The position numbers and the translations under genes are program-made. From Candidatus Bathyarchaeia archaeon (GTDB taxonomy: Archaea > Thermoproteota > Bathyarchaeia > Bathyarchaeales > Bathycorpusculaceae): 31,858 nucleotides of DNA. Position 1 is the stretch's first letter. Each line of letters starts with the position of its first letter. Shown here piece by piece: positions 17,272-31,858 of this stretch. The stretch covers positions 1 through 31,858 of the forward strand of contig JBEKHN010000021.1 of the NCBI GenBank assembly GCA_050012255.1, read 5' to 3'. The notes beneath the pieces were generated by a model that worked only from the letters and a program-made list of their open reading frames with translations, did no database searches and was not told where the DNA came from.

Positions 17272-17288
17272 CTATAAAACTTTGCCCC
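17272..17288 (-). promoter_or_regulatory. SRP RNA promoter; also a variant of the island palindrome
   Basis: Minus strand GGGGCAAAG-TTTTATAG about 25 bp upstream of the SRP RNA 5' end. Confidence 0.75.
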
Positions 17289-17299
17289 TAAATCTAAAT

Positions 17300-17785
17300 C
17301 TATGCTGTTGGTTGAAGCTTCTGCTTTCTTCTCTTCATTTGTTCGTAGAGATACTCCCAGTACTGAAACATGTTGAGGTCGCCAGAATCCTTTCGCATGT
17401 CTACTATCAGAGGCTTGATCTTCTCCCATGATGACTGAATGATGTCTCCCCAAAAATCGTATACAATATCCGCTTCTACCAGTTTTCTGTAAACAAGGAT
17501 GCCTATCCCTTCAAAATAGTTGCCAAGAATCTTCAACATCATATGCTCTGGTTTTTCGGAATATCTTGCGAGATAATCATCATAGTTTTCGTATTCGATA
17601 GAACAGACTTGAGTTATTGCTTCCTGCACTTCTCTGGCGCTCATATTGAACCATGGAGACAGTCTAATCATGCTCTCCGTTTGTCTTAATCTGCTCTGAT
17701 GCCGAATCTCTACGATGTAATATATGACTCCTGCTAGCACACCAGCAGAAGCAATCGCAATGGAAACAGTAGATATGTCAATCAT
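17300..17785 (-). CDS. DUF4760-like membrane-anchored protein
   Basis: N-terminal TM helix, then NYFEGIGILV...W.KIKP.I..MR...WEYLY pattern. Confidence 0.75.
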   Translation of the reverse strand: MIDISTVSIAIASAGVLAGVIYYIVEIRHQSRLRQTESMIRLSPWFNMSAREVQEAITQVCSIEYENYDDYLARYSEKPEHMMLKILGNYFEGIGILVYRKLVEADIVYDFWGDIIQSSWEKIKPLIVDMRKDSGDLNMFQYWEYLYEQMKRRKQKLQPTA

Positions 17786-17867
17786 TGTCGACACCTTGAA
17801 CGCTAAAACAAGATAGTCTTGATTTGGGTCGGCTATAACTTTTCTGCATCTCGATTTTTCGGGTCTG

Positions 17868-17886
17868 AGTTTGGGATAAAACTTTA
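17868..17886 (+). repeat. Island palindrome copy 1 (right arm missing)
   Basis: AGTTTGGGATAAAACTTTA followed directly by GCGCGC. Confidence 0.8.
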
Positions 17887-18094
17887 GCGCGCTGGCTTGT
17901 CCCTAAATTCGCAAAAAACACGAATTTAAAAGCATATACAATTTGCATATACACTTTGCATATACACTTTGCATATACACTTTGCATATACAGTTAACGA
18001 GCATCCTTGAAAACGGTGAGGCTGTTCAGGTCGGATGCTGAGCCGAGTGGGCAGTTCAAGTGCGAACGCACAATAAAGGGACAAGGCAGCGCGC
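17887..18094. repeat. GCGCGC-ended inverted-repeat element A (MITE/hairpin-like)
   Basis: Left GCGCGCTGGCTTGTCCCTAAATT; right end reverse-complemented GCGCGCTGCCTTGTCCCTTTATT; TA on both sides. Confidence 0.8.
17932..17992. repeat. 13-bp tandem repeat, about 4.7 copies
   Basis: GCATATACACTTT units at 17932, 17945, 17958, 17971 and partial at 17984. Confidence 0.95.
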
Positions 18095-18329
18095 TATGTT
18101 TTGTCGGCTGCGAAAGAAAGGAACCGATATTTGTCAATGTCATTTGGGGGATTGAGGATAATCCATGGCTTAGCAGAGCCGGTATGTGATTTTTCCGTCC
18201 GACTTGAGTGGTTAAGTCTATCTCTCATTCCGCCCGTGAATTTCTCTTTGCCATGGGGCTGACACTCCCCCTATAGGCTGAGGTAACAGTTGTGGTAATG
18301 TTGGATGGTAACACACACGTCACAGCAGA

Positions 18330-19301
18330 TCAGGAAAATTCTGCCACCATTCCGTCAACCGCAAGAGCCTTCTTGAACCCCAACGCCTTCACCGTTTCGG
18401 CCAGCTCCTGCTGCGTCGAGGGAACGGTTACGCGAAACCTGTTCACACCAGCAGTCTCAACAACGCATCGTGCGGCATTTATGAGCAGTTTCTCAACGCC
18501 AAGCTTCCTACCCTCGACGTTAGCGTGTATGAACCCGATCTTGCCTACTTCGTTAGTGGTCGTGTACGAGACTTCAGCATAACCAACTATCCTGCCATTA
18601 TGCACTGCAGCAAGCTTTGTTTCCTTCGAGGTACGGAAAAAACGCGCCAGAAACGGTGTCTTCAAATTGTTCTTCCTGAAATCGTACATCTTCAATCGAA
18701 CAGGGTCCTCCGAAGCCACGACAAGCGTGTAAACCTCGTTCAAATCGTCATTCTGAAACGGCCTAATCACGACGCCGTCAACGTCTTCTGGTGCGACAAA
18801 TGAACCTGTTTCTCCAACAAAATAAACAGCATTTTCAAAAGCTCTGAACCTCAGTTTAACATACATGTCTATCGCAGGAACATTCGTCGATAGTACACCC
18901 AACACCGCTCTCGCCTTTCCCCTTTGGCGAACATACTCAAGCGCACGTGTCATTAATCTCGTGGCGATTCCTCTTCTCCTGCAATCTGGATCAACCATTA
19001 CCACAGAAATTGAACTCAATTTCCCCCTATCTGCAACGATCGTTGTTCCCACGAGCTTGCCATCAGCTTCTGCAGCCAGAAACTTCAATGGTCTTTTCCC
19101 AAACAACCCTAACAATCCGAACAAAAACCTGCCACCCCACCCGAACCAACGGTTAACCATTCCCCTGACATGATCAGGATCAAACCCGGTGGCTTCAAAC
19201 TCCTCAGCATTGCACACGGGCAGAAGACGCAGCAAATCATCCAAATCAGACTTACGGAAATCCCTAATCAAAACATTATCGTTCTGTCTGTCAGCTTTCA
19301 A
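18330..19301 (-). CDS. Tandem-domain GNAT acetyltransferase
   Basis: VDPDCRRRGIATRL, NVPAIDMY; second domain GRKLGVEKLL. Confidence 0.88.
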   Translation of the reverse strand: MKADRQNDNVLIRDFRKSDLDDLLRLLPVCNAEEFEATGFDPDHVRGMVNRWFGWGGRFLFGLLGLFGKRPLKFLAAEADGKLVGTTIVADRGKLSSISVVMVDPDCRRRGIATRLMTRALEYVRQRGKARAVLGVLSTNVPAIDMYVKLRFRAFENAVYFVGETGSFVAPEDVDGVVIRPFQNDDLNEVYTLVVASEDPVRLKMYDFRKNNLKTPFLARFFRTSKETKLAAVHNGRIVGYAEVSYTTTNEVGKIGFIHANVEGRKLGVEKLLINAARCVVETAGVNRFRVTVPSTQQELAETVKALGFKKALAVDGMVAEFS

Positions 19302-19423
19302 ACCTGCTCACGTCAATCCCAAAAGGATTGACCATTCTCTTAAGGCTAAGTCTCAACACGTCATCACAAACTGTGACTAAACCTTAATGATGAAATGAAG
19401 AATTCAAACCGAATTAGCACGTG

Positions 19424-19627
19424 TCACTCGCTAAGTCCAATGCCTTCTTGGATCAATTCTGCCAGCCGAAAAGTGAACCGAGCCGCAGGAGCCCCATAAA
19501 CAACGTCCTCATCAGACATCACGGTCAAGCTGAGGAACTCACGAGTTTCAGTTCTATCCTCAACCACTTTCGGCTTCTTCGAAATACCTCCTAGGGCATT
19601 GCCATTCTGTTCTAGGCAGGGCATCAT
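19424..19627 (-). pseudogene. C-terminal fragment of 2-oxoacid dehydrogenase E2-like acyltransferase
   Basis: GGISKKPKVV...REFLSLTVMSDEDVVYGAPAARF matches the E2 C-terminus with the DHxxxDG motif degraded; no N-terminal part. Confidence 0.75.
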
Positions 19628-19631
19628 CGTC

Positions 19632-19659
19632 GTTGGTTGGTTGGATAGAACTTTACCCT
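19632..19659 (+). repeat. Island palindrome copy 2
   Basis: GTTGGTTGGTTGGATAGAACTTTACCCT. Confidence 0.8.
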
Positions 19660-19756
19660 TTTTCTCTCTCCTTTTAATTCTCTAATTCTAATGCTCTAAC
19701 TCTCACTCTCTCTCTACACACACGCACACACAAACACACACAAATGGCGCGCGCTA
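19658..19756. repeat. CT/CA-rich low-complexity arm ending in GCGCGC-TA
   Basis: Homologous to the reverse complement of 28263-28378. Confidence 0.8.
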
Positions 19757-19852
19757 TAGACAGTCAAATCACTCAGCAACTAGAAAAGGTCGAAGTTTTC
19801 CGTTCATATTCCTCTTTCAAATGTAGGGACCAAGTCCTTTCAACTTCAAGTC

Positions 19853-20248
19853 TCACTTGTATTCACTAACATGGACATTCCAATCACCCAAGCCTCCAAG
19901 AATGACAATGTGCAAATAGAATCTGCCTTTCACATCTAGAAGGTCCTCTCCACTGTAAGTTTGAAATGGCGTTTGAATCTCCTTTGTCACGTTATGTGCC
20001 GTGGCGTTCATGACAATAATAAGAAAATTCGAATCAAACGCGTTTATATCGTTGCAACGCCAATTAATCCGCCATTCGTCCCCAGTTATCACAAACTGCT
20101 CTGTAGTCATATCGTTATTCTGTTCGGACCCACTCCAACTTCCAATAGAAACCCATTGTTTTCCTTTTGGCTGAAGTTGACTATTGATAATCCATGCTCC
20201 GCCGATAACCACAACTAGAACTGCAAGGATAGCAGGTACAGCGAGCAT
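19853..20248 (-). CDS. Membrane-anchored extracellular beta-rich protein
   Basis: N-terminal hydrophobic helix; WSGS...F.ITG.EWRINW...GDWNVHV. Confidence 0.7.
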   Translation of the reverse strand: MLAVPAILAVLVVVIGGAWIINSQLQPKGKQWVSIGSWSGSEQNNDMTTEQFVITGDEWRINWRCNDINAFDSNFLIIVMNATAHNVTKEIQTPFQTYSGEDLLDVKGRFYLHIVILGGLGDWNVHVSEYK

Positions 20249-20298
20249 ACTTTTTTCCCATATCTCTTGTCGTCTTCATTCATCTTTGAACCCCTAGT

Positions 20299-21336
20299 TT
20301 ATCTTCTGTTGTAGTGCAGATTTAAGATTAGCTTTCTTTTTGAAGGATGGTTGGTTATTGCGTTTTCTCTAGGTTCTGTCTGACTTTGGCTTGTTTTCAC
20401 GCCTTTCTTTTTGTAGATTATGACTGTTAGTAGTGTTAATAACATGAAAAACATCGTAGCTTGAATCGATGGAAACTCTGGAATTATATATGGAACCATA
20501 AGCGGATAATGGTCAATATTGTTCGTGTCGATTACGTAAGGTCTGTTCCAGACGCCTGAGCTGTGAACTTCAGCGGCGTTCGGATGCTTTGTCAGATAGT
20601 CGCTCCAGTAGTTACCCCTGCTCCCATCATCCCAAATGTTAACCGAGCCTGCTGTGTAGGCTGGGTTGTTCACAAAATTGTTGTGGAAAATGAAGTTGTT
20701 GTTAGAAGAGAAGAGATAAATGCCATAATCGCCGTTTGCGGCGTTGTTCCCCGACAAAGTGTTATCAGAAGAAGAGCGCAGCTCAATGCCAATCCAGTTG
20801 TTTGCGGCGTTGTTGCCCGACAAAGTGTTGTTAAAAGAAGAGTCGAGATAAATGCCATCATAGTTGCCTACGGCGTTGTTGCCCGACAAAATGTTGTTAG
20901 AAGAAGATTCGACTTCAATGCCAACCCAGTTGTTTGCCATGACGTTGTTGCCAGACAAAACATTGCTAGAAGAAGAGCTGAGCCCAATGCCAACGTAGAA
21001 GTTTGTTATCGTCATGTTTCTTACTGTCACGTTGCTCCTGTTCGTAAGCGTTGTTCCGTTCCCGCTTAGGATTCCCGTCACGGTGTAGCCTGCCCCGTTC
21101 AAAACGATGTTGTCTCTCTCAACCACAATTCCATCAGCATTGGCGGTGATGTTGCCAGTTAAGGTGTATGTAATGTTGTCTGCGGTATAGATATGGGCTG
21201 TCGGCGGCTCTATTGAGCCGTCAGCCCGTATGTAAATGGTTCCACCATCAGCCTTGACAACTTGAATCAATCCCGTTATTGACGATACGGAAAGCAAACA
21301 CAGAATTGTAAGCGAAGCAAAAACAACTCTGTTCAT
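20299..21336 (-). CDS. Secreted NosD/PbH1 beta-helix protein with PEF-CTERM-like sorting signal
   Basis: Signal peptide, IYIRADGSI, 22-aa GI.L.SS.NN.LSGNN repeats, GNYWSDY, DHYPL, IPEFPS-TM-KKK. Confidence 0.88.
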   Translation of the reverse strand: MNRVVFASLTILCLLSVSSITGLIQVVKADGGTIYIRADGSIEPPTAHIYTADNITYTLTGNITANADGIVVERDNIVLNGAGYTVTGILSGNGTTLTNRSNVTVRNMTITNFYVGIGLSSSSSNVLSGNNVMANNWVGIEVESSSNNILSGNNAVGNYDGIYLDSSFNNTLSGNNAANNWIGIELRSSSDNTLSGNNAANGDYGIYLFSSNNNFIFHNNFVNNPAYTAGSVNIWDDGSRGNYWSDYLTKHPNAAEVHSSGVWNRPYVIDTNNIDHYPLMVPYIIPEFPSIQATMFFMLLTLLTVIIYKKKGVKTSQSQTEPRENAITNHPSKRKLILNLHYNRR

Positions 21337-21440
21337 CCTTTGTCACTTCCATACATAGTTTACGGATTGATTGAATCAGTTCTTACGGTTTGTGGAAGAA
21401 TCTTCAATTGAAATCGTGACTATAAGAAAGCAAAAAGTTT

Positions 21441-21698
21441 GTGAATATTGAAGCGAATTATTTCTCTGGAGCTGGGTCAAAACCTGAGGAAATTGTTGAC
21501 TCATACATCAATCGAAGGAATGAACTTGTGAGGAGTCACTGGGATTTCATATGGATAACCGATGGAGATGTATGGCGTGTCTCTGAAAACCAAATAGTCA
21601 AAGCATTCAATGGTCTAGATTACATCTTCAATATTGAATTCTCTAGAGGAGGACTGCTCAAAGAAGCTCTAGTTCATATATTTGCTAGAAATAGGTGA
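21441..21698 (+). pseudogene. C-terminal remnant of DpnII-family restriction endonuclease
   Basis: IEANYFSGAGSKPEE...FIWITDG..W matches the DpnII C-terminal motifs; in-frame stop at 21423 and no N-terminal region. Confidence 0.7.
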
Positions 21699-21704
21699 AA
21701 CAGT

Positions 21705-22349
21705 TTGGCGAAATATCCTATTTCTCACAATGGGAGTAAGAGACTAGGAGAATTCTTTGGAGAGATCTTGACTTTTCATATACCGCCATCTAAAGAGAAA
21801 ATGATTCTAGACCCAACTTGTGGAAAGAAGCACCTATGGGATGAATATCTTAAGAAGAACTTTTATGGAAAAACAAGATTGGAAGAATATGGAAAAGTGG
21901 TTTTCTCTGACATAAAACCTTATGGTCAAGAAATTGTTTCAGATGTGAATTCATTGAATTTTGATTATCAGTTTGATGGAATAGTCTATGACTCCCCATA
22001 TTTCTTTGGATACAAAGGTTCTAATGACCCTCGAAGAGAGGATTATGGAGATTATGTTCAAACTTACGAAGAATTACTTGAATTCATGGATATAGCAGAT
22101 ACAAAGTTTCCTGAATGGTTGAAAGAGAATGGGAAACTGATTGTGAAATGTGCTGACCAATATCAGACAAAGGAAAGGAGATTTTATCCACATCACTACA
22201 CTTGGATTAACAGATTATCCAATTTTGAAATCATAGATTTTTTCATTTTCATACACCATAGGATGTCACCAACGGCATTTCAAGTAAAGAATAGACCATG
22301 TTCGGTAATAATGCACACATACTTCCTTGTATTCAATAAGAAACATTGA
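21705..22349 (+). CDS. Putative DNA amino-methyltransferase
   Basis: ILDPTCG SAM motif, FDGIVYDSPY (DPPY-like), LKENGKLIVK; follows the REase remnant. Confidence 0.75.
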   Translation: MAKYPISHNGSKRLGEFFGEILTFHIPPSKEKMILDPTCGKKHLWDEYLKKNFYGKTRLEEYGKVVFSDIKPYGQEIVSDVNSLNFDYQFDGIVYDSPYFFGYKGSNDPRREDYGDYVQTYEELLEFMDIADTKFPEWLKENGKLIVKCADQYQTKERRFYPHHYTWINRLSNFEIIDFFIFIHHRMSPTAFQVKNRPCSVIMHTYFLVFNKKH

Positions 22350-22367
22350 CATTAGCGTTACTGAAAA

Positions 22368-22655
22368 GCGCGCGTGCTGAGAGAAGAGTTAAAAAATGAC
22401 TAAACAAACGAGTCAAAAGAAAGTTGTTGGCAGAAAAGGTCTAGTCCTTCTTGGAATCATGGGTATCATAGGGCTAATCCTTATTGCTTTTGGAGTATTC
22501 TCGATATTCGAGATATCCACACTTCTAGGTCTAATCTCATTGGTTCTAGGGTTCTTCACATACATTATATTTATACTCATAGAAAGAAAGTTAAAGCTTC
22601 TCTAAAAAGTTCAGCTTTAATGATTAATGGATTTCTGACCAGTGTACGCGCGCGC
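22368..22655. repeat. GCGCGC-ended element B enclosing a small gene
   Basis: AA-GCGCGCGTGC ... GTACGCGCGCGC-TA brackets ORF 22396-22605. Confidence 0.55.
22396..22605 (+). CDS. Small two-TM membrane protein
   Basis: 69 aa, basic N-terminus, two hydrophobic helices. Confidence 0.75.
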   Translation: MTKQTSQKKVVGRKGLVLLGIMGIIGLILIAFGVFSIFEISTLLGLISLVLGFFTYIIFILIERKLKLL

Positions 22656-22677
22656 TATTTCGTTTTTTGCTATGTGT

Positions 22678-22706
22678 GTTTGGGATGAAACTTTACCCCC
22701 AAACCC
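22678..22706 (+). repeat. Island palindrome copy 3
   Basis: GTTTGGGATGAAACTTTACCCCCAAACCC. Confidence 0.85.
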
Positions 22707-22756
22707 TAAACGTTCCATGGAAGCGCGGGTCTGGGCCTCTTCTAAAGAGGCATTGA

Positions 22757-23137
22757 TTACGTGGATACGATTTTAGTTTGACGTGTTGAGATTGGAGCAC
22801 GAATGATGAACCATCGAACAGGGAGGGAATAGTGAGTTATTTTGTGTCGCTTCATGGGTGGGACCTTGAGGATTTGCATAGGTTTCAAAGTGACTACTTC
22901 GCTCTCCACTTCTATTTTCAGAGTGCCTTCCAACACGAGATAGTATTCCTCAATGGGAGGTGCATGAGAATGCTCAGTTTCTTTCTCAAGTACACCCTTC
23001 TGGGGATTGTTCACAAACGCAATCTGAATTTGCTCGGAAAAGAATGGCGAAGATTCGGGCACGTCTTCTGGTGTGCCAATGATCCAACGGTTCCAAGCAT
23101 CAGGCTTGCTGAGGTCCAAAACTGCGACTGAAACCAT
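22757..23137 (-). CDS. Cupin domain protein
   Basis: HSH...EEYYLVLEG and VPPMKRH motifs. Confidence 0.88.
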   Translation of the reverse strand: MVSVAVLDLSKPDAWNRWIIGTPEDVPESSPFFSEQIQIAFVNNPQKGVLEKETEHSHAPPIEEYYLVLEGTLKIEVESEVVTLKPMQILKVPPMKRHKITHYSLPVRWFIIRAPISTRQTKIVST

Positions 23138-23293
23138 TTTCTCACTCTTCTCTTTCTACAATTTCTTACTGTACAGCAAATAAGCGTTTAACGCGCGCTA
23201 TTCCAGTAGACAATGTAGCGCGCTAGTTAAATTCAGCTACTAAGAAGGTTCAGGTTTATCGCGCGCTGTAACTTTTTCCGCACTTGTTTTTCC

Positions 23294-23320
23294 TTTGGGT
23301 TTGGGACAAAACTTTACCTC
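23294..23320 (+). repeat. Island palindrome copy 4
   Basis: TTTGGGTTTGGGACAAAACTTTACCTC. Confidence 0.85.
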
Positions 23321-23356
23321 AACACTTTAAATGTTCTAGCCAAGCAATTGAGAATC

Positions 23357-24089
23357 ATGAGTGATAAACGACTCATCGAAAGAATAGTTCAAATTGTTCT
23401 GGAAAACACTGGAAACAGTTTGATTTCACTTTATCTTGTGGGGTCTTTTTTGACGAAGGACATGGTGAAATCAAGTGACATTGATCTTGTTGGAGTAATG
23501 GAGTCATCTTTCGATTTTGGAAAAGAGAAACTGATCAACGAGAGACTGAATGAAAAGATAGTTTCCAGTCACAAAATAGATCTGGGAACAATGAGTGCTG
23601 AAGAATTCTTTGGAGGAAAACAAAAGGGCAGCTTGATGAGGCACATGAACCTTCCTGTTTTCTTGAACTCTTTGAAAAATGCACAAATTGTTTATGGGAA
23701 AGAACTCGATTTTGACGAATTACCGATCAAACCCGCATCAAAAACAGATGAAATGAAATATTGGATCAAAGAATTCAAAAAATACAAGAATGAATTCAGG
23801 AAAAAAGACAAGCTTGGAGTCGATTTTTCTTTAAGATTTTGTAAAGGTCATTTTCTATATTGCCAATCTGCAACTCCAGCTTATAAGAAAAACTAAACAA
23901 AAGAAGAAGAGATATTCAGACATAGCGAATGCTTTCAGAACAGAAAGCAATCATATCGTGCACTATTCGCTGGAATTGCGAAAAAAAGAATCGATAGCCA
24001 ATGAGGAAAAACAGTTATGGTTGGATAAGGCAGAAGTCTATGTAGAGAGCATAGATGATGTCATGAGAAACTCAATCGGTTCGACCTAG
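23357..24089 (+). pseudogene. Nucleotidyltransferase (Pol-beta-like), frameshifted
   Basis: LYLVGS...SDIDL motif; reading continues in another frame from about 23835 (DFVKVIFYIANLQL...) to TAG at 24089. Confidence 0.8.
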
Positions 24090-25059: not shown

Positions 25060-25082
25060 TTGTGGTGTTCAGAAGGAGGTGT

Positions 25083-25218: not shown

Positions 25219-26061
25219 CTATTTCTGGCATTTTGGGCAGACAAACACTTTGCCTCCTCCAAGACTCAGCTCTTCTATAGGAGTGCGGCAAACTGGACAG
25301 TTCTGTTTTCTCATGTTCGGACCCATGGCTGAAACGTAGTGGCCTTGCTTCTGATGAAGATCCGAGAACTGGTTTTTGCCGTTCAGCCGGATTCTCTCTC
25401 GAAGCAAAAGTTTGATGGCATTGTAAAGTGCTCTTTGCTCACCCGAGTTTAACTCCGAGGCCTTTCTTTTCGGATGAAGTTTAGCTCTGTATATGATGTC
25501 TTGAAAGGCGCTGTTACTCAGCCCAACCACTACAGCATCTTTTCCAACAAGAATCGATTTGAGCGCCTTGTTATTATCCTGCAAAAGTTTGGAGAAATTG
25601 TTGAATGTAAACGTCTCATCTATTGGTGACAGTATCTCTGGGTTGAAGTCTCGTTTGAACATATAAGAGTCCATAAGTTCATCATCCTTCAACACCCTCA
25701 TACCTCCCATACTAGTGAATCTCACCGTCAACGCGGTGTTGTCGGAAAAATCTATCTTCAGATGAAACTTTTCTGGAACGGTCGCTTCACTTAAGTGATA
25801 AAAAATCTCGCCGCCGTATTCAGGGCTGAGAATCATGTTCATCCCCCCATCAAGCTTCACGCGTATGGAGTTGCCCCTAGAAATGACAGATTCGACTTCT
25901 CTGTTCACAAGTTGATCAAAGGATTTGTTATCCCTGTTTATGAACCCAATTGTCTGCAATTTTCCGCAGTCTCGAAGAAGATACCTCTTTATGTGTTTAC
26001 CCTTCAGCTCTTTATTCATTTGATCGGCAAGAATCTTTGCTTCTGGAAGTTCAATACTCAT
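25219..26061 (-). CDS. Fpg/Nei-family DNA glycosylase-like protein, atypical
   Basis: ELPE near the N-terminus, H2TH (LKSILV...GLSN...IIYRAKLHP), C-terminal CPVC...CPKCQ finger. Confidence 0.85.
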   Translation of the reverse strand: MSIELPEAKILADQMNKELKGKHIKRYLLRDCGKLQTIGFINRDNKSFDQLVNREVESVISRGNSIRVKLDGGMNMILSPEYGGEIFYHLSEATVPEKFHLKIDFSDNTALTVRFTSMGGMRVLKDDELMDSYMFKRDFNPEILSPIDETFTFNNFSKLLQDNNKALKSILVGKDAVVVGLSNSAFQDIIYRAKLHPKRKASELNSGEQRALYNAIKLLLRERIRLNGKNQFSDLHQKQGHYVSAMGPNMRKQNCPVCRTPIEELSLGGGKVFVCPKCQK

Positions 26062-26228
26062 CTAAAGTCTCCCTAGCACCCGTTCTTGTAACAAACCAGT
26101 GTTTAAATCGTTTATGCACTAACCGGTGAAAGAAGGTCACAGGATATTCGTCAAATGGTTTGAAGTTAGAGCGCGAGCTCTTCGAGCTCACTAACGACTA
26201 ATCTCTTTCCAATCTCTATGCTATGATA

Positions 26229-26414
26229 GCGCGCGCATGCTTGTTCCGAAATTGGCCTAAAATGGTTTTTATTCGCCTTCCATGATTTAAGGAAGGTCTT
26301 GGGCTTCGTATCTGTTCTTGATTTCTTTGAGCAACTGTCTTCTTGAGCACTGGCAGAAATGTGCAAAACGGAATTAAAACCATTTTAGACCATTTTAGGA
26401 ACACGCATGCGCGC
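26229..26414. repeat. GCGCGC-ended inverted-repeat element D
   Basis: About 40-bp imperfect TIRs (GCGCGCATGCTTGTTCCGAAATTGGCCTAAAATGGTTTT vs GCGCGCATGCGTGTTCCTAAAATGGTCTAAAATGGTTTT), TA on both sides. Confidence 0.85.
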
Positions 26415-26887
26415 TAGGTTCAAATATTGGTTTACATTAAATGTAAACGTGCGCGCTTTCTAAAAAAAGTCCATCCATGTTCTCACTGTTTTCTCCTTCA
26501 TCGGGAGTAAGAAACCTCTAGTTGGCTCGAAGCAAGGCCCGCATTTTCAACTGCCACTCCATCTTAGCTCGGCTTGGCAATGAGATATGCTCATGTTTTC
26601 TCATCTTAGCCGCACGCGAGGGTATTTGCACTTAATTAGGTGCGAGTACCGTCTTCCTTAGATTGGAGATATCTCCCGAAGACCCTACTTTTGGTAGGAT
26701 TTCGGATTGACATATCATATTGCCAAAAGAACAAAGTGAGGACAGACACTTAAAAATAATATGTCGAAACCGTTCAACGTGAAAACATGTAGGGAAATGA
26801 TAAATTCTCTAAGATCTTATGAGAAGTGTATTGTTTGAAAGGCTACTCTTTCAATGATTAAGATAACCTGGACAAGAGGTTGAAAAA

Positions 26888-28075
26888 GTGAGTGAGTTGA
26901 AGATGCCTGAAAGGATCAAATTCTTGGCTTTTGAAGCCAGAGAGATTGGTGGAATGATTGTCAAAAACAGGTTAGTTAGATCTGCTACCTATGAGCATAT
27001 GGCTTCTGAAGGTGGTAGCGTTACAGACGAACTCATAAAATTGTATAGGACTCTGGCTGAAGGTGGAGTTGGATTAATAATCACAGGTGCTGCTTATGTG
27101 CAACTTAGTGGTAAGTCTGTTCCTTGCCTGACGGGGATATACAGAGACGATCTAATTCCAGGATTGAGAAAAATCGCAGAAACAGTCCATGAACATGGCG
27201 ATGGTTGCAAAGTTGCGATACAGCTGCTTCATTGTGGTCGTCAATCCTTTGTGTTAGAAAACACCATAGCCCCTTCTGCCGTTTTTGAACCTGTGGTTAA
27301 AAAAATGCCACGAGAAATGACGATTGAAGAAATAGAAGAGACAATAGAAGCTTTTGCAAAAGCAGCGAGGAGGGCAAAGGAGGCAGGGTTCGACGCCGTT
27401 CAACTCCACGCTGCCCATGGATACCTCTTGAGTGAGTTCCTGTCCCCTTACACTAACAGAAGGACAGATGAATACGGGGGCAGCACAGGAAACAGGACCA
27501 AAATCGTTGAAGATATTTACAAAAGGATCGTGGAAAATGTTGGAACGGATTTTCCCATTTTGATAAAGATGAACGTCGACGATTTTCTTGAAGGCGGAAT
27601 AAACCTCAACGAGTCCAAAAAGATTGCAGAAAGGCTTTCAAAAACGGGGTTTGCAGCCATTGAAACCAGCGGATGCATGTGGGAAGTCACGACACGTAGT
27701 AAAGAAGAACTTGGTTGGGTACCAGCTATGTTACCTGAAAGCCGAATAAATATCAGGTCTAAAGATAAGGAAGCCTACTATTTACCTTACGCCAGAGAAA
27801 TCAGGAAAGTGATCGCTGCACCATTAATTCTGGTCGGTGGAATCAGATCCCTTGACGTGATTGAAAACATACTGGCTGAAGGAAGCGTGGATTTCGTTGC
27901 CCTGTGCCGACCCTTGATTCGAAAACCAGACCTTCCAAATAGATGGCTAAAGGAAATTGGAGGATTAACCGGTGACTGTATTTCTTGTAACGGCTGTGTT
28001 CGCAGCACAATAGTGGGTGGCATCAGGTGTATCCCAGAGGAAAGAAGAAATAGAATACGAATCAAAGGTTCTTGA
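26888..28075 (+). CDS. NADH:flavin oxidoreductase (Old Yellow Enzyme family)
   Basis: KNRLVRSAT, GGVGLIITG, QLHAAHGYLLSEFLSP..N.RTDEYGGS, C-terminal CISCNGC; start may be ATG 26903. Confidence 0.95.
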   Translation: MSELKMPERIKFLAFEAREIGGMIVKNRLVRSATYEHMASEGGSVTDELIKLYRTLAEGGVGLIITGAAYVQLSGKSVPCLTGIYRDDLIPGLRKIAETVHEHGDGCKVAIQLLHCGRQSFVLENTIAPSAVFEPVVKKMPREMTIEEIEETIEAFAKAARRAKEAGFDAVQLHAAHGYLLSEFLSPYTNRRTDEYGGSTGNRTKIVEDIYKRIVENVGTDFPILIKMNVDDFLEGGINLNESKKIAERLSKTGFAAIETSGCMWEVTTRSKEELGWVPAMLPESRINIRSKDKEAYYLPYAREIRKVIAAPLILVGGIRSLDVIENILAEGSVDFVALCRPLIRKPDLPNRWLKEIGGLTGDCISCNGCVRSTIVGGIRCIPEERRNRIRIKGS

Positions 28076-28262
28076 AAACCTTAACAGAGAGTGGCTTGAA
28101 CTATGCAGATGGAGAATTAGTGAAAAGAAATTCGTTGTTAAGCACATAGATGCTTGAAAGCATCTATAAACCCTTGTCCTGATATCTGTTCATTTCGGTT
28201 ATAGCTTTTCCGCAAAATCATAGACTGACTTTTTTCTATGCTACGTGTCTGTCTGTGTCTCA

Positions 28263-28395
28263 GTTTGTGTGTGCGTGTGTGCGTGTGTGTGTAGAGAGAG
28301 AGTGAGTGAGTGGGGGAGAGAGCTAGAGGGTTAGAATTAGAGCGTCGTCGTGCGTGTTGAAGAAGAGAGAGAGAAAAAGATAAAACTTTACCCCC
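28263..28395 (+). repeat. GT/GA-rich arm plus island palindrome copy 7
   Basis: Core GATAAAACTTTACCCCC at 28379-28395 preceded by the inverse of the 19658-19743 arm. Confidence 0.85.
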
Positions 28396-28455
28396 ACACA
28401 CAAAAAAATTCAGGAAATGTCGAATGCCTCTGCAAACAAAGTTGCCTCTTAAGCG

Positions 28456-28947
28456 TTATGAGAGAAATTTGCTGTAGATTATCATGTCCAATCCTCTTGT
28501 GTGTTTTCTCAAGAAGCCTTCGGGCAGGAATCCATTCTTGACGTACAGCCTTATTGCTGGCACGAGGTGTGGTGATGTGTGCAGCCAGATTTTGTGGGCT
28601 TTTCTTCTTCTTCCCTCTTTGATGAACCTGTTTAGAAGTCTTGACCCAACTCCTCTGCCTCGGCACTCCTTTGTTACCGCCAGAAATCCGAGACTGCACA
28701 CTCCCGCTGCTTCTCGGCCTAAAGCCATACCTACAATCTGATGGTTTTCCACAGCAATTAGAAGAATCTCGCTCTTGTTTTCTATTCTCTCCCTGAGCTT
28801 CTTGATGTCCTCAGGTTCATGCATGCTCTTGAGTTCAGGGTCAACGAAAGAAGCAGGCAACCACTCACGAAGACTCTCAAAGGTTCTAATCAGACAATTG
28901 TGCAGGTTTTCGCAATCCTCGACAACAGCAAAACGAACCTTGAACAT
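28456..28947 (-). CDS. GNAT acetyltransferase
   Basis: AVTKECRGRGVGSRLL, AIRLYVKNGF. Confidence 0.9.
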   Translation of the reverse strand: MFKVRFAVVEDCENLHNCLIRTFESLREWLPASFVDPELKSMHEPEDIKKLRERIENKSEILLIAVENHQIVGMALGREAAGVCSLGFLAVTKECRGRGVGSRLLNRFIKEGRRRKAHKIWLHTSPHLVPAIRLYVKNGFLPEGFLRKHTRGLDMIIYSKFLS

Positions 28948-29014
28948 TTTTCCTCATCAACATCTTCAGAATCGTCTCGTTGTGTTTTTAAGAATTTTCC
29001 TACAGACGTTCACC

Positions 29015-29054
29015 TTTGGGTTTGGGACAAAACTTTACCCCAAACCAACCAACC
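29015..29054 (+). repeat. Island palindrome copy 8
   Basis: TTTGGGTTTGGGACAAAACTTTACCCCAAACCAACCAACC. Confidence 0.9.
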
Positions 29055-29087
29055 TTTTCAAGAATCAGATTAGCTCGGCACCACCTG

Positions 29088-29438
29088 TTAAACATGGAGT
29101 GCTTTGCGAATTTCTTCAAGGTTATTTGTGGCGACAGGGTCTGTTGACAAGTACTCTTTCAGTTTTTCGCAAGGATAATCGCCGCAATGGGCACAGGTCT
29201 TGACTCTCTTTTCTTCGGCGCACGGTTTTATCTCGCAGAGTTTTCGGCAAAAGCCAGAAATCACATCTGACTTACATCCGTGACAGTCAACGTCTTCTGG
29301 TTTGAATTTAATCTCGCTTTGATCAGACCAGTGTTTGGCTATCCGTTTTTTCCACTCAACGTCTTTCGTTTGAGTCGCTTTGAAAGCTTTGCATTCGTCA
29401 CAGTCAAGTCCACAATAAGCAATCACTTCAGAAATCAT
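29088..29438 (-). CDS. DUF3795 Cys-rich protein
   Basis: IAYCGLDCDEC, CHGC, CEIKPC, CAHCGDYPCEKL. Confidence 0.88.
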   Translation of the reverse strand: MISEVIAYCGLDCDECKAFKATQTKDVEWKKRIAKHWSDQSEIKFKPEDVDCHGCKSDVISGFCRKLCEIKPCAEEKRVKTCAHCGDYPCEKLKEYLSTDPVATNNLEEIRKALHV

Positions 29439-29541
29439 TCTATTGCCTTCTTGTTTGACGGCATCACGTGTTGAATGAGGGTAGCCAACGAGATAAACAT
29501 ACTGCAGTCATATTACGGTGACCCGATCTTTGATTTGGCTA

Positions 29542-29670
29542 GCGCGCACGCTGGACTCCAGAAATCAAATAGTCTCCACGCCAGTAATCATCTCGCCAGA
29601 CTCTTTGGCCAGACGGCATAGAGAACTAGATGTAAGTTCAGACGGATTAGAGAGTCCTTCCTGCACGCGC
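29542..29670. repeat. Degenerate GCGCGC-ended element E
   Basis: TA-GCGCGCACGCTGGACTC ... GAGTCCTTCCTGCACGCGC-TT. Confidence 0.5.
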
Positions 29671-29673
29671 TTG

Positions 29674-30693
29674 TTACATTCTTCGCTCTTGGATAACTTT
29701 GTTAAGTCGGAGGTCGCGTCTGTAGCTTGCTTTGCATGGATGTCCTTCTGCTCTCAGGATCTGAGGCGCGTTCAAAGTTGCGATGACTGACCAGATCGTG
29801 CCCAACCTTATTTTCTGCTGATGCGAACAGACGTAGCCACTGTGGTTTGACAGGATTTTTTCAGCAAGTCTAACGTTGACTTTTCCACTGTTCTCTTCTA
29901 GAATACGCGAAATCGTTGCGTATCTTGGCTGTGAATCCCATTCAGTTGTGCTTCTCGCGTTGGGGTCTTCCTTGTCCTGCATCTCTGGATGGACAAAATG
30001 GTTTGTACACACAATGAAATCTTCGCCCTTGTTGGGCCTCCGTACTCGTACTTTATCGGGCGACGCTTCGACTACGGCAATGTTTCCTTGTTTGTCGGCA
30101 AGAAGATAGTTGAAAGTTGAAACGTGCTGAACGTTTTCGAGAACTCTGACTCCTTCGTCGACGTTGGCGCATTTGTCGAGAACGCATCGGATGGCAAGGC
30201 AGAAGCTCACGCCCGGATGGTTCCCTGGAGAACTCACTCCAGTCATGGCTATGGCCAGACCTTTCTCGTTTATGCCGTCTTCCCGTCCAATGAAAACGTC
30301 TGTGTGGCCAAGACTGCTGTAACCATTTTCGGGGCAAGTTAGGTAGCTTTCGGTGTGCTTTTTGAAACTGTAGAGGAAATCGTAGTTTCGGCCGAACACA
30401 ACGTCGGAGCCTGTGAAGGAAGCGAATACACTGCAGTTAGGTTCGGCTTTGAAGGCGCCGATACTGCACATGAAACCTGTCAGCTGCTCGTACGGTGCGT
30501 TACAAGCGTCTGCAAATCCTCTGATTTCCTCTAGGATCTCGGGAAAGACGCGTTTGACTTCTGGCTCAGATTCTCTACCGAAATCGAGTTTTTCTTTCGA
30601 TTGACTTGAAACTTTGAAACCGTGTCCGTGAAGGACTGTTCCATACCTATGACCCATGTCGTAGTATGTGCCTTTTACCGTTGGATGATACAC
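29674..30693 (-). CDS. C45-family Ntn hydrolase / acyltransferase
   Basis: NCS nucleophile site, GRNYD, DGINEKGLA, TNHF. Confidence 0.9.
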   Translation of the reverse strand: MYHPTVKGTYYDMGHRYGTVLHGHGFKVSSQSKEKLDFGRESEPEVKRVFPEILEEIRGFADACNAPYEQLTGFMCSIGAFKAEPNCSVFASFTGSDVVFGRNYDFLYSFKKHTESYLTCPENGYSSLGHTDVFIGREDGINEKGLAIAMTGVSSPGNHPGVSFCLAIRCVLDKCANVDEGVRVLENVQHVSTFNYLLADKQGNIAVVEASPDKVRVRRPNKGEDFIVCTNHFVHPEMQDKEDPNARSTTEWDSQPRYATISRILEENSGKVNVRLAEKILSNHSGYVCSHQQKIRLGTIWSVIATLNAPQILRAEGHPCKASYRRDLRLNKVIQERRM

Positions 30694-30827
30694 AAGTTAT
30701 CACGTTCTAGTCTGTATTGCTGTCTTGTTTGAGATAATGGTTTCCAGAGGGTTGAGTGATTTTGTTTGCCAACGGGCAAATTTATTTGCTGGGAGGCAAT
30801 ACACTGAATCTTCAAGAAAAGGCGTCA

Positions 30828-31124
30828 ATGATGAGCGGATACGAGACAACTGAAAGGTTTCTGAAGGCTCTTGCTGACAAATCTCGACTCCGAATTCTGG
30901 AGTGCATAGGGCAGGGAGTTTCAAACCCAGGCGAAATTGCAAGGAGGCTCGATCGACATAGGTCGACTGTCGAAAAACACCTAAGAGTGCTTTTGAAAGC
31001 CAAGATTGTTGAAAAAGTTCCATCATTGACTGAGGCAGGTCAGCTTTCTATTCGTTATAAGATATGTGATGATGCGGAAGGTGTTCTGAAAACGATTTTG
31101 AACGCGGCGGCACGGGCGAAGTAA
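30828..31124 (+). CDS. ArsR-family HTH regulator
   Basis: FLKALADKSRLRIL...EIARRL..HRSTVEKHLRVL; divergent from the C45 gene; start uncertain. Confidence 0.88.
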   Translation: MMSGYETTERFLKALADKSRLRILECIGQGVSNPGEIARRLDRHRSTVEKHLRVLLKAKIVEKVPSLTEAGQLSIRYKICDDAEGVLKTILNAAARAK

Positions 31125-31231
31125 TTGTGGCGAATTGGATTATCCAACAACATAACTGTAGGCTAAGTGTTCGCCAGTGGTCGGGCTTCTTCTCATCACT
31201 CGCGCGCGCTTATTGGAGATGACGTCGTTAC

Positions 31232-31669
31232 ATGAAGAAACAAAGCTGGTATTCCAACATCGGTGTTGAAAAAATCGAAGTCACAGAATGTTTGGATTCA
31301 GGAAGCCAGAGAGTATGGATAAAGTTCGAGCCAGTGGACAAGTCAAAACGGATGGAAGTCTGCAACATTCTTGACCAACCAGAAAAAGTCAGTTGGAAAT
31401 ACAAGAACAGTCATTTTGAGACCATCGATAGTCAGAGCAAAAGCAATTATTATGGAGCTGCATCAGCTGGTAGCCTTCGCCTGGCACAAGGGACAACGGA
31501 AATCTCCAAAGATGCTGGAAGCAAGATTATTGTATTTCCTTTGGACAGGGGGGTCAGCTTGGACGTTTACAAATACGCGCTGTCAGGGGAGCGATTCTCA
31601 ATTGCAGTTGACAAACCCACGTGGGTTGGTTATGTGGTAAGCGGTAGTGGAAGCATAAGTCCGACTTGA
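31232..31669 (+). CDS. Hypothetical protein
   Basis: 145-aa ORF with upstream GGAG, lying between a GCGCGC run (31202) and palindrome copy 9. Confidence 0.65.
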   Translation: MKKQSWYSNIGVEKIEVTECLDSGSQRVWIKFEPVDKSKRMEVCNILDQPEKVSWKYKNSHFETIDSQSKSNYYGAASAGSLRLAQGTTEISKDAGSKIIVFPLDRGVSLDVYKYALSGERFSIAVDKPTWVGYVVSGSGSISPT

Positions 31670-31695
31670 GAACCAAATAGCTCTGAATCCTCCGT

Positions 31696-31739
31696 GGTCG
31701 GTCGGTCATAAAACTTTACCCCCAAACCCAAACCCAAAC
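31696..31739 (+). repeat. Island palindrome copy 9
   Basis: GGTCGGTCGGTCATAAAACTTTACCCCCAAACCCAAACCCAAAC. Confidence 0.85.
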
Positions 31740-31858
31740 TAACCTCTTTTCGACTTCCAAACAAGAGCCAGACAAAACGCCACGCAACCAACCGCAAAAA
31801 ATAGGATGAAGTCAACAGCGAAATTCCATACTGCGATGTTCCAGAAATCTGTTCGCCC

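Follow-up and report, generated by a model that had tools for sequence, protein, structure and literature searches.

An integron-like array of accessory-gene blocks bounded by a promoter-like 14-nt sequence in a peat-soil Bathyarchaeia archaeon

Downstream of position 17,272, the window (the whole stretch of DNA that was analysed, 31,858 nt, from a peat-soil Bathyarchaeia archaeon, genome G000) carries mutually unrelated gene blocks separated by copies of one short sequence, which raises the question of what this sequence does at the block boundaries. The sequence is a 14-nt core, GATAAAACTTTACC, present at ten places in the window with up to two mismatches; 0.27 were expected from shuffles, and none of 100 shuffles reached ten. 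Nine cores lie on the plus strand and start at 17273 (two mismatches), 17875, 19644, 22684, 23305, 24135, 28379, 29026 and 31707, and one lies on the minus strand at 25092. The same scan found no match between positions 1 and 17272. All ten cores are intergenic according to the ORF list and our own crude gene calls. The original prediction had placed nine cores between genes and none in the first 17 kb, which is confirmed, with 17273 as an additional variant. The core hardly varies across its positions 1 to 14, and CC comes next in most copies. The GC content of the window drops from about 0.50 to 0.38–0.46 past 17 kb.

Throughout the genome (2.35 Mb in 38 contigs), the core occurs 32 times exactly and 11 times with one mismatch (43 copies), compared with 0 and 1, respectively, in the block-shuffled genome. 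Two-mismatch matches are mostly background (16 in the genome versus 21 in the shuffle), and four of them were retained in the set on the strength of their flanks. Adjacent cores are separated by a median of about 1.06 kb, by 0.4–3.1 kb in most cases, and share their orientation in 86 of 125 pairs. The exact 14-mer is present in all ten same-genus Bathyarchaeia genomes, at 12–27 copies in the six larger ones (86–98% complete), and at 0–2 copies in 30 genomes of other genera; these same-genus genomes, like the loci from related MAGs, are non-independent samples. When 185,579 species genomes were scanned with a 17-mer, the genomes returned were mostly MAGs of Bathyarchaeia.

The left end of the array is anchored by the conserved SRP (7S) RNA gene on the minus strand (16933–17246), which matches Rfam RF01857 over its full length (160.5 bits, gathering score 96.5) and is 95% identical and syntenic in genomes G001 and G007. 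This synteny stops at 17287/17292, inside the first core. The core at this place is the variant TATAAAACTTTGCC (17273–17286, plus strand), the reverse complement of which is the BRE/TATA element of the SRP RNA promoter, 26–40 nt upstream of the SRP RNA 5´ end. The promoter core is single-copy and identical in nine genomes of the genus, where it is followed by seven different sequences. In the sister species G007 and G010, the promoter core passes straight into one conserved flank, which represents an empty allele. G001 carries a single cassette, a 1,033-bp insert that is bounded by a second core and followed by the same flank, and G000 carries an array of about 14.9 kb with ten modules before the flank is reached on contig C8. 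Five further species each have different DNA beyond the promoter core. The 17273 variant serves as the resident (attB/attI-like) site from which the array begins.

Ten modules follow this site, with domain assignments from Pfam. Module 1 (17287–17874, minus strand) contains a DUF4760 gene (17300–17794) and ends at a one-mismatch core (17875–17888), the 3´ end of which is interrupted by a MITE-like element (17885–18096). This element, a 323-aa GNAT gene (18330–19301) and a 67-aa 2-oxoacid dehydrogenase fragment (19424–19627) form module 2 (17889–19643, minus strand); its GNAT gene shares 87% identity with loci of G008 and G004, where cores are absent nearby. After the one-mismatch core at 19644–19657, module 3 (19658–22683) comprises a 131-aa ORF, a NosD/beta-helix protein, DpnII endonuclease and methylase remnants and a 69-aa ORF, and a piece of it (22374–22641) is 94% identical to DNA adjoining a core in G001. 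Module 4 (22698–23304, minus strand), between one-mismatch cores at 22684–22697 and 23305–23318, contains a cupin gene (22757–23137) and has two mutually complementary arms. Module 5 (23319–24134, plus strand) contains a nucleotidyltransferase gene (23348–23896) and is separated by an exact core (24135–24148) from module 6 (24149–25091, minus strand), which contains an FMN reductase gene (24207–24929) and a MITE-like element (24896–25062) and is 92% identical to G009:C27, again with no core nearby there. The next core (25092–25105, one mismatch) is the sole inverted one in the window. Module 7 (25106–28378) carries an Fpg/Nei glycosylase gene (25219–26061, minus strand), a MITE-like element identified from repeats (26229–26416) and an OYE flavin oxidoreductase gene (26888–28075, plus strand). 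An exact core (28379–28392) precedes module 8 (28393–29025, minus strand), which contains a 163-aa GNAT gene (28456–28947), and a one-mismatch core (29026–29039) precedes module 9 (29040–31706), which contains DUF3795, an AAT-family acyltransferase/peptidase and two small ORFs; a piece of the latter module (29666–31209) is 97.5% identical to G007:C7. Past the last core of the window (31707–31720, one mismatch), module 10 starts (31721–31858) and continues on contig C8 from 26575 down to 26192, positions 31734–31858 being 99% identical to C8:26451–26575 reversed. It ends at core C8:26178, and the flank beyond this core is the DNA found directly after the SRP promoter in G007 and G010. The cargo named in the original prediction is recovered for the two GNATs, the cupin, the nucleotidyltransferase and the FMN reductase and OYE flavoproteins; of the restriction-modification genes, only remnants are present, namely an 85-aa piece matching the DpnII C-terminus and a weak partial methylase. 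Within the array, a long C-rich arm after core 19644 (19666–19744) is an inverted repeat of the G-rich arm before core 28379 (28264–28342; 79 nt, 75% complementary). This pair may represent the two ends of one large 8.7-kb insert that now holds later inserts.

Comparison with relatives places the boundaries of mobile DNA at the cores. None of 47 cores has flanks collinear with complete genome G001, whereas 191 of the 400 intergenic points used as controls do (Fisher P = 8e-13). Homology to the complete sister genome crosses none of 46 cores but 516 of 1000 controls, and it stops at the core in 10 of 46 sites versus 48 of 1000 controls (P = 1e-4), that is, 4.5 times more often. The DUF4760 block (17274–17886) is 92% identical to G007:C1:552666-553278, away from the SRP gene, with homology starting and stopping at cores, and the GNAT block (28379–29040) is 95% identical, core to core, to G007:C3:179598-180255; the outer flanks of both copies are unrelated to those in G000. 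The cupin module is absent core to core in a contig of run X4, from a different study of an unrelated wetland sample, in which 22679 is joined to 23300 and 620 nt are skipped, the joint being flanked by 134 and 149 nt. The read evidence consists of assembled contigs, in which most other core-to-core joints have short sides of 24–27 nt, and no circular form of a module was seen in these data. Some indels between G000 and G001 do not involve cores, and several homologous genes in relatives have no cores nearby. The data show where the sites lie, that they are confined to variable DNA, that the junctions are exact, that both empty and occupied alleles exist and, as described below, where the crossover falls: a promoter-like 14-base sequence marks the exact points at which small accessory-gene blocks are inserted, lost and swapped. 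The prediction that the sites delimit the cassettes of a gene-capture array is upheld.

The point of exchange was located from core variants. Position 12 is A in 46 of 47 dispersed cores. The SRP-side core keeps its specific T1 and G12 in 7/7 occupied genomes, and the right-flank core carries the cassette-type G1 (G000 and G001) and A12 (G000). Because T1 and G12 remain on the SRP side, exchange occurs at or after position 13, rather than in AAACTT as originally predicted. Only CC/CCCC is conserved at this place, which is short for the overlap region of tyrosine recombinases (6–8 bp). With modest confidence, we regard the core as the place of exchange in a gene-cassette system of one Bathyarchaeia genus and its viruses, that is, a promoter-mimicking recombination site, with a tyrosine recombinase acting in trans as the most likely enzyme. 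Read in core orientation, a module would consist of a C/A-rich arm, a single gene or a few genes of either strand, a G/T-rich arm and the core. It would leave or enter as a circle bearing one core and recombine with a resident core, the strands crossing at the core 3´ edge in the CC/CCCC run, in a conservative site-specific reaction. Crossover at this edge would leave the resident core intact and add one core per event, and would thereby generate direct-repeat arrays. Insertion just upstream of the BRE would be harmless to the SRP RNA promoter, which is the oldest resident site of the window; the dispersed cores may likewise have promoter activity.

An Xer-like integrase clade is the candidate enzyme, although it is loosely linked to the sites. 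The core lies 57–61 nt past the integrase stop codon, on the same strand, in loci L059, L061, L298, L340 and L355, and 148 nt past it in L010. L061 and L355 share an identical 59-nt spacer and core despite diverged integrase genes, and their DNA is unrelated right past the core. In G000, an integrase 3´-end remnant lies 117 nt before core C5:16499. Among 112 candidate-clade integrase 3´ ends in metagenome contigs, three have a core (≤1 mismatch) within 300 nt and three more have a two-mismatch version, compared with 1 of 105 in an in-gene control. Within 8-kb windows around cores, an integrase was found at 9 of 103 loci (12 ORFs), about twice a rough expectation. None of the nine PF00589 matches in complete genome G001 adjoins a core, the closest lying some 0.9 kb away from a core with one mismatch, and the G001 ortholog of the G000 candidate has no core in the 34 kb examined. 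Relatives of the candidate clade also occur in core-less genera. No serine recombinase was found (best E = 0.008, below the cut-off). For the predicted recombinase encoded elsewhere, this clade is only a candidate, with a core at that distance in a few members.

The flanks of the core differ from the fixed GGTTTGG/CCAAACC arms that had been proposed. Upstream of the core stands one of various G/T- or G/A-rich microsatellites (TTTGGG, TTGG, TG, GA), and downstream of it a C/A- or C/T-rich one, likewise of several kinds. Complementarity between the C-arm of one core and the G-arm of the next is more frequent than in random pairs (P = 4e-4) and more frequent than between the arms flanking the same site (P = 1e-3). 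Within a single site, the two arms are complementary at chance level (P = 0.47), and the sites fold no better than shuffles (z −1.4 to +1.2), with no attC-like hairpin among them. Neither a dif-like anatomy, with two 11-bp inverted arms around AAACTT, nor a stem-loop terminator is therefore supported. The original observation stands, and its interpretation is partly supported.

Contrary to the original view that the sites are not promoters, the core in reverse complement forms a BRE/TATA-type element that matches the SRP RNA promoter at 12 of 14 positions and shows the same pattern as the regions upstream of the tRNA genes of this genome. The main rival explanation builds on this likeness: the core would be a working archaeal promoter that spreads with the genes it serves, as in the PeSL (promoter-early stem-loop) cassettes of phages, with the G-rich and then C-rich arms perhaps forming an attenuator, and general cell or virus recombination on short shared sequence, as is described for the hyperplastic regions of T4-type phages, would need no dedicated recombinase. 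Its appeal is increased by the confinement of the motif to variable regions with indel and replacement endpoints at the motif, as PMC2839356 and PMC4122927 describe for PeSLs, by the shared polarity of the arms with stem-loops that often have a G tract followed by a C tract (PMC2839356), by cores inside head-tailed virus-like contigs beside tail-tube and capsid genes, and by the lack of a recombinase consistently linked to the sites. We nevertheless consider it rather unlikely. The shared sequence of 14–16 nt between dissimilar arms is very short for homologous exchange, and the 14-mer varies much less among its copies than do the tRNA promoters of this genome. The motif holds no consistent position relative to genes: on the promoter-driven side, 22 neighbours present their 5´ end and 24 their 3´ end, single-ORF modules have the ORF on the driven strand in 27 cases and on the other in 20 (P = 0.38), and 12 sites lie between convergent genes. 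The folding values above, a crossover apparently fixed at one core edge and the constant distance past several integrase genes also speak against it.

A regulatory site alone, either a promoter or a binding site for a transcription factor or chromatin protein, used by accessory genes and with the boundary location merely reflecting variable DNA, would fit the BRE/TATA likeness, the imperfect 7-2-7 palindrome read in the core, as expected of a dimeric DNA-binding protein, and the presence of cores no more than about 6 kb from three of the genome's four TBP genes. This account is quite improbable, as it leaves unexplained the base-exact junctions (empty, single-cassette and ten-module alleles at one promoter, and core-to-core recurring modules), the 4.5-fold excess of homology ending at cores and the pairing of arms across modules, and no orientation rule relative to genes was found. 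REP, dif or attC sites serve as targets for some insertion sequences, and long arcs of orientation are known for single-strand transposons. Modules bounded by inverted-repeat arms could accordingly transpose next to the core as a specific target, in keeping with module ends that tend towards inverted repeats, insertion always at the same core edge and the long arcs of core orientation in complete genome G001. However, the core added by each insertion is not identical to the resident core and hence cannot be a target duplication. The modules lack a transposase, no Y1 transposase was detected in the genome, well-matched module arm pairs (≥11/14) amount to only about 15%, and the module contents are mutually unrelated, unlike copies of a MITE or IS; transposition is thus very doubtful.

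Taken as a site-specific recombination system, the array resembles several known ones. Tycheposons of Prochlorococcus and cis-mobilizable elements are integrase-less islands that accrete in tandem at RNA genes, with a tyrosine recombinase in trans. The array similarly places cargo segments, each bounded by an attachment-site repeat, beside a small RNA gene; here, however, the repeat copies the promoter of the RNA gene rather than its 3´ end, the segments are single-gene sized and the same site is dispersed over >12 loci per genome. The pdif site, which flanks the dif modules of Acinetobacter plasmids, has 28 bp arranged as 11-6-11 with arms in inverted repeat, and successive sites around a module point in alternating directions. 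In contrast, the arms here are variable and not complementary within a site, the crossover is off-centre and most neighbours (86 of 125 pairs) form direct repeats. According to PMC6449649 and PMC13141974, Acinetobacter plasmid dif modules also consist of accessory genes between short Xer-type tyrosine recombinase sites, are shuffled between replicons and depend on an enzyme encoded elsewhere, and the candidate enzyme here is Xer-like.

The array is integron-like, although it is built on a different kind of site. Like integrons, including the archaeal ones of PMC9668308, it lines up small cassettes whose accessory cargo includes GNATs and cupins; both have one recombination site per cassette at one end and a resident site that receives cassettes, and include many arrays without a nearby integrase, like CALINs (clusters of attC sites lacking integron integrase). 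In both, crossover at the site edge keeps the site with its cassette. Unlike integrons, the present system has no IntI (best TIGR02249 score 43 bits, cut-off 265), a conserved 14-mer with variable arms instead of a structure-defined attC hairpin, genes in both directions and many small arrays per genome instead of one, and its resident site is an RNA-gene promoter; the non-attC sites and mixed gene directions of the original prediction hold. A counterpart in motif type is found in the PeSLs of T4-type phages. In PMC2839356 and PMC4122927, these combine a short conserved motif of host promoter consensus with a G tract and then a C tract (PMC2839356), are concentrated in hypervariable regions where the insertions, deletions and replacements that distinguish close relatives have their endpoints at the motif, and accompany small modules of one gene, most of them with an unknown or accessory function. 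Mini-circles were demonstrated for PeSLs, but none were seen in the assembled contigs here, and the motif has neither a fixed position upstream of ORFs nor a stable stem-loop. The present motif occupies a cellular archaeal chromosome as well as viruses, is BRE/TATA instead of sigma-70, has a conserved part of 14–16 nt, recombines at one edge and is carried at a fixed distance by a few integrase genes.

The core, a 14-nt motif that bounds the gene modules (a module being the DNA between adjacent cores), is preceded by a G-rich arm and followed by a C-rich arm. A search of the window for GATAAAACTTTACC with at most two mismatches gave 10 matches against 0.27 expected; all nine core positions of the original prediction were recovered, the tenth match lies at 17273, and none falls within 1-17272. 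The window's own genome (G000), of which the window is the entire contig C21, is a MAG of 2.35 Mb in 38 contigs with 98.5% completeness and 5% contamination, and is archaeal, with four TBP genes and no sigma-70. It carries 32 exact and 11 one-mismatch cores, compared with 0 and 1 in a shuffled genome. The G000 site set (n = 47) comprises the copies with at most one mismatch and four two-mismatch sites chosen for typical flanks. Core positions 1-14 are nearly invariant and are usually followed by CC, and the cores are grouped in a small number of regions and on small contigs of lower GC. The TBP genes are located at C1:287164, C10:23093, C33:240 and C29:2519, three of them in variable regions, no more than about 6 kb from a core. 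The 5' 395 positions of 16S rRNA (Rfam) were observed at the contig start (window 1-422, minus strand); despite this 5' part, an RF01959 search of the whole of G000 gave no match.

The first core, TATAAAACTTTGCC at 17273, is located 26-40 nt upstream of the 5' end of the SRP RNA gene (16933-17246, minus strand; Rfam). Archaeal promoters combine a BRE with a TATA box that lies some 26 nt before the start, and on the minus strand TATAAAACTTTGCC reads as a BRE rich in A and then a TATA element rich in T, a pattern also found upstream of G000 tRNA genes. The dispersed core differs from this SRP-promoter core at two positions, 1 and 12, so that its reverse complement matches at 12/14. The match to the SRP promoter and the tRNA-gene pattern make the core promoter-like, and it would fire toward its G-rich side; judged by its bases, it appears to contain the host promoter consensus. 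A role of the core as promoter or terminator of its neighbours was considered and rejected. By our own crude gene calls, the neighbours at the 47 G000 sites are divergent in 12, convergent in 12, and tandem in 10 and 8; the other 5 sites lie at contig ends. These four arrangements are about equally frequent, so neither role accounts for the placement of the core. The fired side of the core meets gene 5' ends 22 times and 3' ends 24 times. Among the 47 single-ORF modules of G000, the complete same-genus genome G001 and the fetched loci, the ORF is on the core-driven strand in 27 and on the opposite strand in 20 (P = 0.38), as anticipated by the claim that the genes face both ways.

Nine genomes of the genus each carry one copy of the SRP-promoter core, without sequence differences, and the DNA that follows it varies. 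In G007 and G010, a conserved flank, shared by both, adjoins the core directly. In G001, the core and this flank are separated by an insert of 1,033 bp and a second core, GATAAAACTCTGCT, in this order. In G000, the core leads into the full array; the contig's final 125 nt are identical to C8 reversed, and this second contig continues to a core at C8:26178 and then to the conserved right flank. With its end joined through C8, the array counts eleven cores and ten modules in about 14.9 kb. In G002, G003, G004, G006 and G009, the SRP core has yet other neighbours, five unrelated sequences. The last module has two left junctions in the assembly, one with a direct core (window 31707-31740) and one with an inverted core at C8:26613 (C8:26583-26626) that leads to other DNA. 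This second junction represents either an inversion, strain polymorphism or heterogeneity, or a second copy of the module.

Collinearity with sister genomes ends at the same place. Window 8672-17287 is collinear with G001 at 95% identity and 9261-17292 is collinear with G007, and homology to both stops inside the SRP-promoter core. The right-hand 14.9 kb has no collinear counterpart in the ten same-genus genomes, and single genes map to scattered places. Genome-wide, the flanks of the core are collinear in G001 at 0/47 sites compared with 191/400 random intergenic points (Fisher P = 8e-13). In all counts of this analysis, same-genus genomes, like loci from related MAGs, are not independent of one another. 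One flank maps in 21 of the 47 sites, neither in 25, and both but apart in 1. In the same comparison, inter-species homology crosses 0/46 cores and 516/1000 control points, and it ends at the core in 10/46 cases compared with 48/1000 controls (P = 1e-4); where it ends at a G000 core, G001 carries a core at the same end. Both a preference for hypervariable regions and indel endpoints at the motif were thus observed. Several array genes occur in relatives without nearby cores, and some indels between G000 contig C5 and G001 lack any core, which indicates that cores explain only a subset of the genome mosaicism.

Individual modules were observed to move as units. The first module (DUF4760; window 17274-17886) is 92% identical to a locus on contig C1 of G007 that is far from the SRP gene of that genome, and the eighth (28379-29040, a 163-aa GNAT) is 95% identical to a locus on G007 contig C3. 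In both cases, homology runs from core to core and the outer flanks are unrelated. A contig from a wetland run of another study (X4) joins 22679 to 23300 with sides of 134 and 149 nt; the 620 nt skipped are the cupin module, from core to core. Read evidence of this kind consists of assembled contigs, in which the deletion allele but no circle was seen, with several other core-to-core joints, whose sides measure 24-27 nt, left out. The original prediction that the sites delimit gene cassettes is borne out by the alleles, the shared modules and the breakpoints, and its proposed check against synteny came out in its favour, since breakpoints relative to G001 and G007 coincide with cores. A MITE or insertion sequence as the module type was discarded: module contents are unrelated, and the second core is no copy of the resident core. 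Three MITE-like elements of 170-210 bp, different from the modules, are present in the window (17885-18096, 24896-25062 and 26229-26416). Their terminal inverted repeats begin TAGCGCGC, and many copies with 72-99% identity occur in G000 and its relatives. The element at 17885-18096 sits in the 3' end of the core at 17875 and contains a 13-bp tandem repeat (17932-17996; unit GCATATACACTTT, about 5 copies). Among the intergenic words of G000, the strongest enrichment is that of 8-mers containing GCGCGC; AGCGCGCG, for example, occurs 370 times in intergenic and 113 times in coding DNA.

The position of the exchange can be read from the two variable bases. The dispersed cores of G000 have A at position 12 in 46/47 cases. 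On the SRP side, the core keeps T1 and G12 in 7/7 occupied genomes; at the right flank, it has the cassette-type G1 in G000 and G001, with A12 in G000. Sequences diverge directly after ...GCC or ...ACC(CC). We infer from the retention of T1 and G12 on the SRP side and from this divergence that the exchange lies at or after position 13, and not in a central AAACTT spacer as had been supposed, and that the core travels with the module on the module's G-arm side. Selection on the SRP promoter could also cause the retention of T1 and G12.

The arms are composed of simple repeats. The upstream flank is nearly C-free (TTTGGG, TTGG, TG or GA repeats) and the downstream flank is nearly G-free (CCCAAA, CCAA, CA or CT repeats). 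Complementarity between the two arms of one site is at chance (P = 0.47, 283 sites). Across a module, in 86 pairs of neighbouring cores with the same orientation, the C-arm of the first and the G-arm of the second show higher complementarity than random pairs (P = 4e-4) and than same-site arms (P = 1e-3), with at least 11 of 14 bases paired in 15% of across-module pairs compared with 7% of random pairs. Modules therefore tend to end in inverted repeats, which is expected if a circle bearing arm, core and complementary arm opens at the core. Cores within arrays would then be hybrid sites, with arms from different modules. A 79-nt inverted arm pair in the window (19666-19744 with 28264-28342) suggests that 19644-28379 entered as one piece and then took later inserts. 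Only 14-16 nt of the site are conserved, and the flanks are variable microsatellites that are not complementary within a site, which does not agree with the dif-like site of two 11-nt arms around a 6-nt spacer originally envisaged. An attC-like hairpin is likewise rejected: in addition to the within-site complementarity, folding of the ten window sites as ssDNA gave z values of -1.39 to +1.17, and none clearly beats its shuffles. Adjacent cores are direct repeats in 86/125 pairs, with a median spacing of 1,055 nt (10-90% range 437-3,092 nt). In G001, core orientation forms arcs, being minus from about 2.29 Mb through 0 to 0.39 Mb and also at 0.684 Mb, and mostly plus from 0.79 to 2.285 Mb. Replication polarity as the cause of these arcs was rejected, since GC skew and gene-strand bias show no replichores. 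The two orc1/cdc6 genes of G001 are located at 692 kb, at a distance of 7 kb from the SRP locus, and at 1,457 kb.

Outside G000, the motif was found almost only in MAGs named Candidatus Bathyarchaeia or Bathyarchaeota from peat, soil and wetland (82 listed of 115 loci); 12 of the 82 are single matches in unrelated bacteria or a Methanocellales MAG, a frequency as by chance. Loci L083-L117 are included in later locus counts whatever their organism. In IMG/VR, the 17-mer occurs in 11 stretches, 7 of which have typical arms and represent six distinct sequences (L264 and L269 are identical). Cores in virus stretches adjoin a tail-tube gene and a capsid gene. On the virus-labelled contig L264 (8192-10681), they surround a Shedu SduA-like gene and a TIR-domain gene of the CAP12/Pycsar effector family, which places defence genes among the cargo. 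The most common families in 103 8-kb loci around cores are NosD/beta-helix (22), GNAT (13), STAND NTPases (11) and one integrase clade (9). Direct repeats of 66-69 nt in the NosD/beta-helix gene of the window (20695-21000) are beta-helix coding repeats. Of a DpnII-type restriction-modification system, window 21441-22349 retains no more than remnants: an ORF of 85 aa aligns with positions 204-277 of the DpnII profile (278 positions), and one of 214 aa has a weak, partial match to a methylase. Literature combining Bathyarchaeia with integron, integrase, attachment site or mobile elements gave no account of the motif, and among the 12 literature matches to the motif 11-mer, the 10 listed were all in unrelated contexts.

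The best IntI match (TIGR02249) in G000 scores 43.3 bits against a cut-off of 265, and the core-adjacent integrases score 60-70 bits. No Y1 transposase was detected in G000, nor a serine recombinase above the cut-off. Its 14 PF00589 matches include no tyrosine recombinase consistently located beside cores. A six-member tyrosine recombinase family (420-490 aa, 41-76% mutual identity), located mostly at contig ends (C1:303292-306029, C6:4397-5755, C6:107809-109188, C7:6-863 and C8:36902-38221), is probably a separate mobile element family. The clade that recurs at cores is Xer-like and below every NCBIfam cut-off, its best match being archaeal XerA (36-100 bits against 220). In loci L061 and L059 a core stands 59-60 nt beyond the stop codon of the clade member, and in L010 148 nt beyond it, always on the same strand; these cores lack a G-arm, as does the SRP site. 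Although their integrase genes have diverged, L061 and L355 share an identical 59-nt spacer and core, and their DNA is unrelated directly after it. In G000, a clade member at C5:14983-15990 has a duplicated 3'-end remnant 117 nt before the core at C5:16499. A survey of metagenome contigs for the clade, by means of a DNA pattern derived from the gene's conserved 3' end, gave at least 120 loci. Among those with enough downstream DNA, a core with at most one mismatch lies at 57-61 nt in 3/112 and a two-mismatch core in 3 more of the 112, all on the same strand (control 1/105). Overall, 5 loci have a core 57-61 nt downstream of a Xer-like integrase stop codon, and the DNA beyond the core differs. 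The integrase-core link is recurrent and geometrically fixed, yet rare within the clade. No integrase abuts any core in the complete G001, and the window array begins at an RNA-gene promoter, not at an integrase gene. A phyletic link between the clade and the motif was rejected, as relatives are present in many genera without cores. As to an XerA- or IntI-like gene near the clusters, a Xer-like gene lies at a few cores, no IntI was found, and no recombinase is a consistent neighbour. Two metagenome contigs (L288 and L291) carry core-like variants and the same CCAA or CCCAAA arm after integrase genes of this clade, which hints that other Bathyarchaeia lineages use variant cores.

Breakpoints, alleles, shared modules, crossover position and arms identify the core as the place where modules enter, leave and are swapped. 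The most likely process is conservative site-specific recombination, in which a circular module recombines with the resident core; the enzyme is probably a Xer-like tyrosine recombinase that acts in trans. Because of its promoter likeness, the core would do no damage to the resident promoter, and it may equip the incoming DNA with one. A wider proposal is put forward tentatively, at a confidence somewhat short of even: a previously undescribed gene-capture system of Bathyarchaeia and their viruses that would be a functional integron analogue. Its BRE/TATA-mimicking site would be anchored at the SRP RNA promoter, and each cassette would have the site at one end and inverted repeats of the microsatellite type at both. 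Exchange at the core edge would be the work of a dedicated Xer-like tyrosine recombinase that has a resident site of its own, and promoter-equipped, orientation-free cassettes, defence genes among them, would pass between chromosomes and viruses.

Bathyarchaeia rank with the most abundant uncultured archaea of sediments and peat, and to our knowledge their gene acquisition is largely unknown. The core provides a concrete sequence marker for their accessory gene pool, and the empty, single and multiple insertions at one locus form a natural series that makes the mechanism directly testable. If a dedicated recombinase takes part, the cassette-array principle would have been invented a second time and independently, here with a promoter-like site, which would be of interest for mobile-element evolution. 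Since we know of no genetic manipulation system for Bathyarchaeia as yet, it would also be a possible tool for gene insertion at a safe, promoter-adjacent site.

The main rival to site-specific recombination is a mechanism of the PeSL type. The PeSLs of T4-type phages are described (PMC2839356, PMC4122927) as promoter plus stem-loop cassettes shuffled by general recombination. A promoter consensus, the G-then-C polarity and a hypervariable setting are common to both systems. However, the shared homology is just 14 nt here and the crossover appears fixed. The stable stem-loop terminator of PeSLs was not found (no excess folding), and the sites lack the PeSL position immediately upstream of a served ORF, 12 of them lying between convergent genes. 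PeSLs also give rise to mini-circles through exchange between adjacent motifs; in the assembled contigs examined here, a deletion allele was seen and no circle. If no recombinase is involved, the array would extend the phage PeSL principle to cellular archaeal genomes.

Compared with Xer/dif modules, which have a 28-bp site with two 11-bp inverted arms, a 6-bp spacer and central exchange, the site reported here shares none of these features. Archaeal integrons, as the relevant part of PMC9668308 presents them, use IntI and classical attC sites; the Bathyarchaeia array is therefore not one of them. The view that these are not attC sites holds, as neither ssDNA folding nor arm complementarity gives a hairpin, and the integron feature of genes oriented mostly one way relative to the site is absent (27 vs 20). 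As in integrons, single cassettes come and go and the crossover lies at the site; this is seen in the three SRP alleles, the X4 deletion and the modules shared from core to core.
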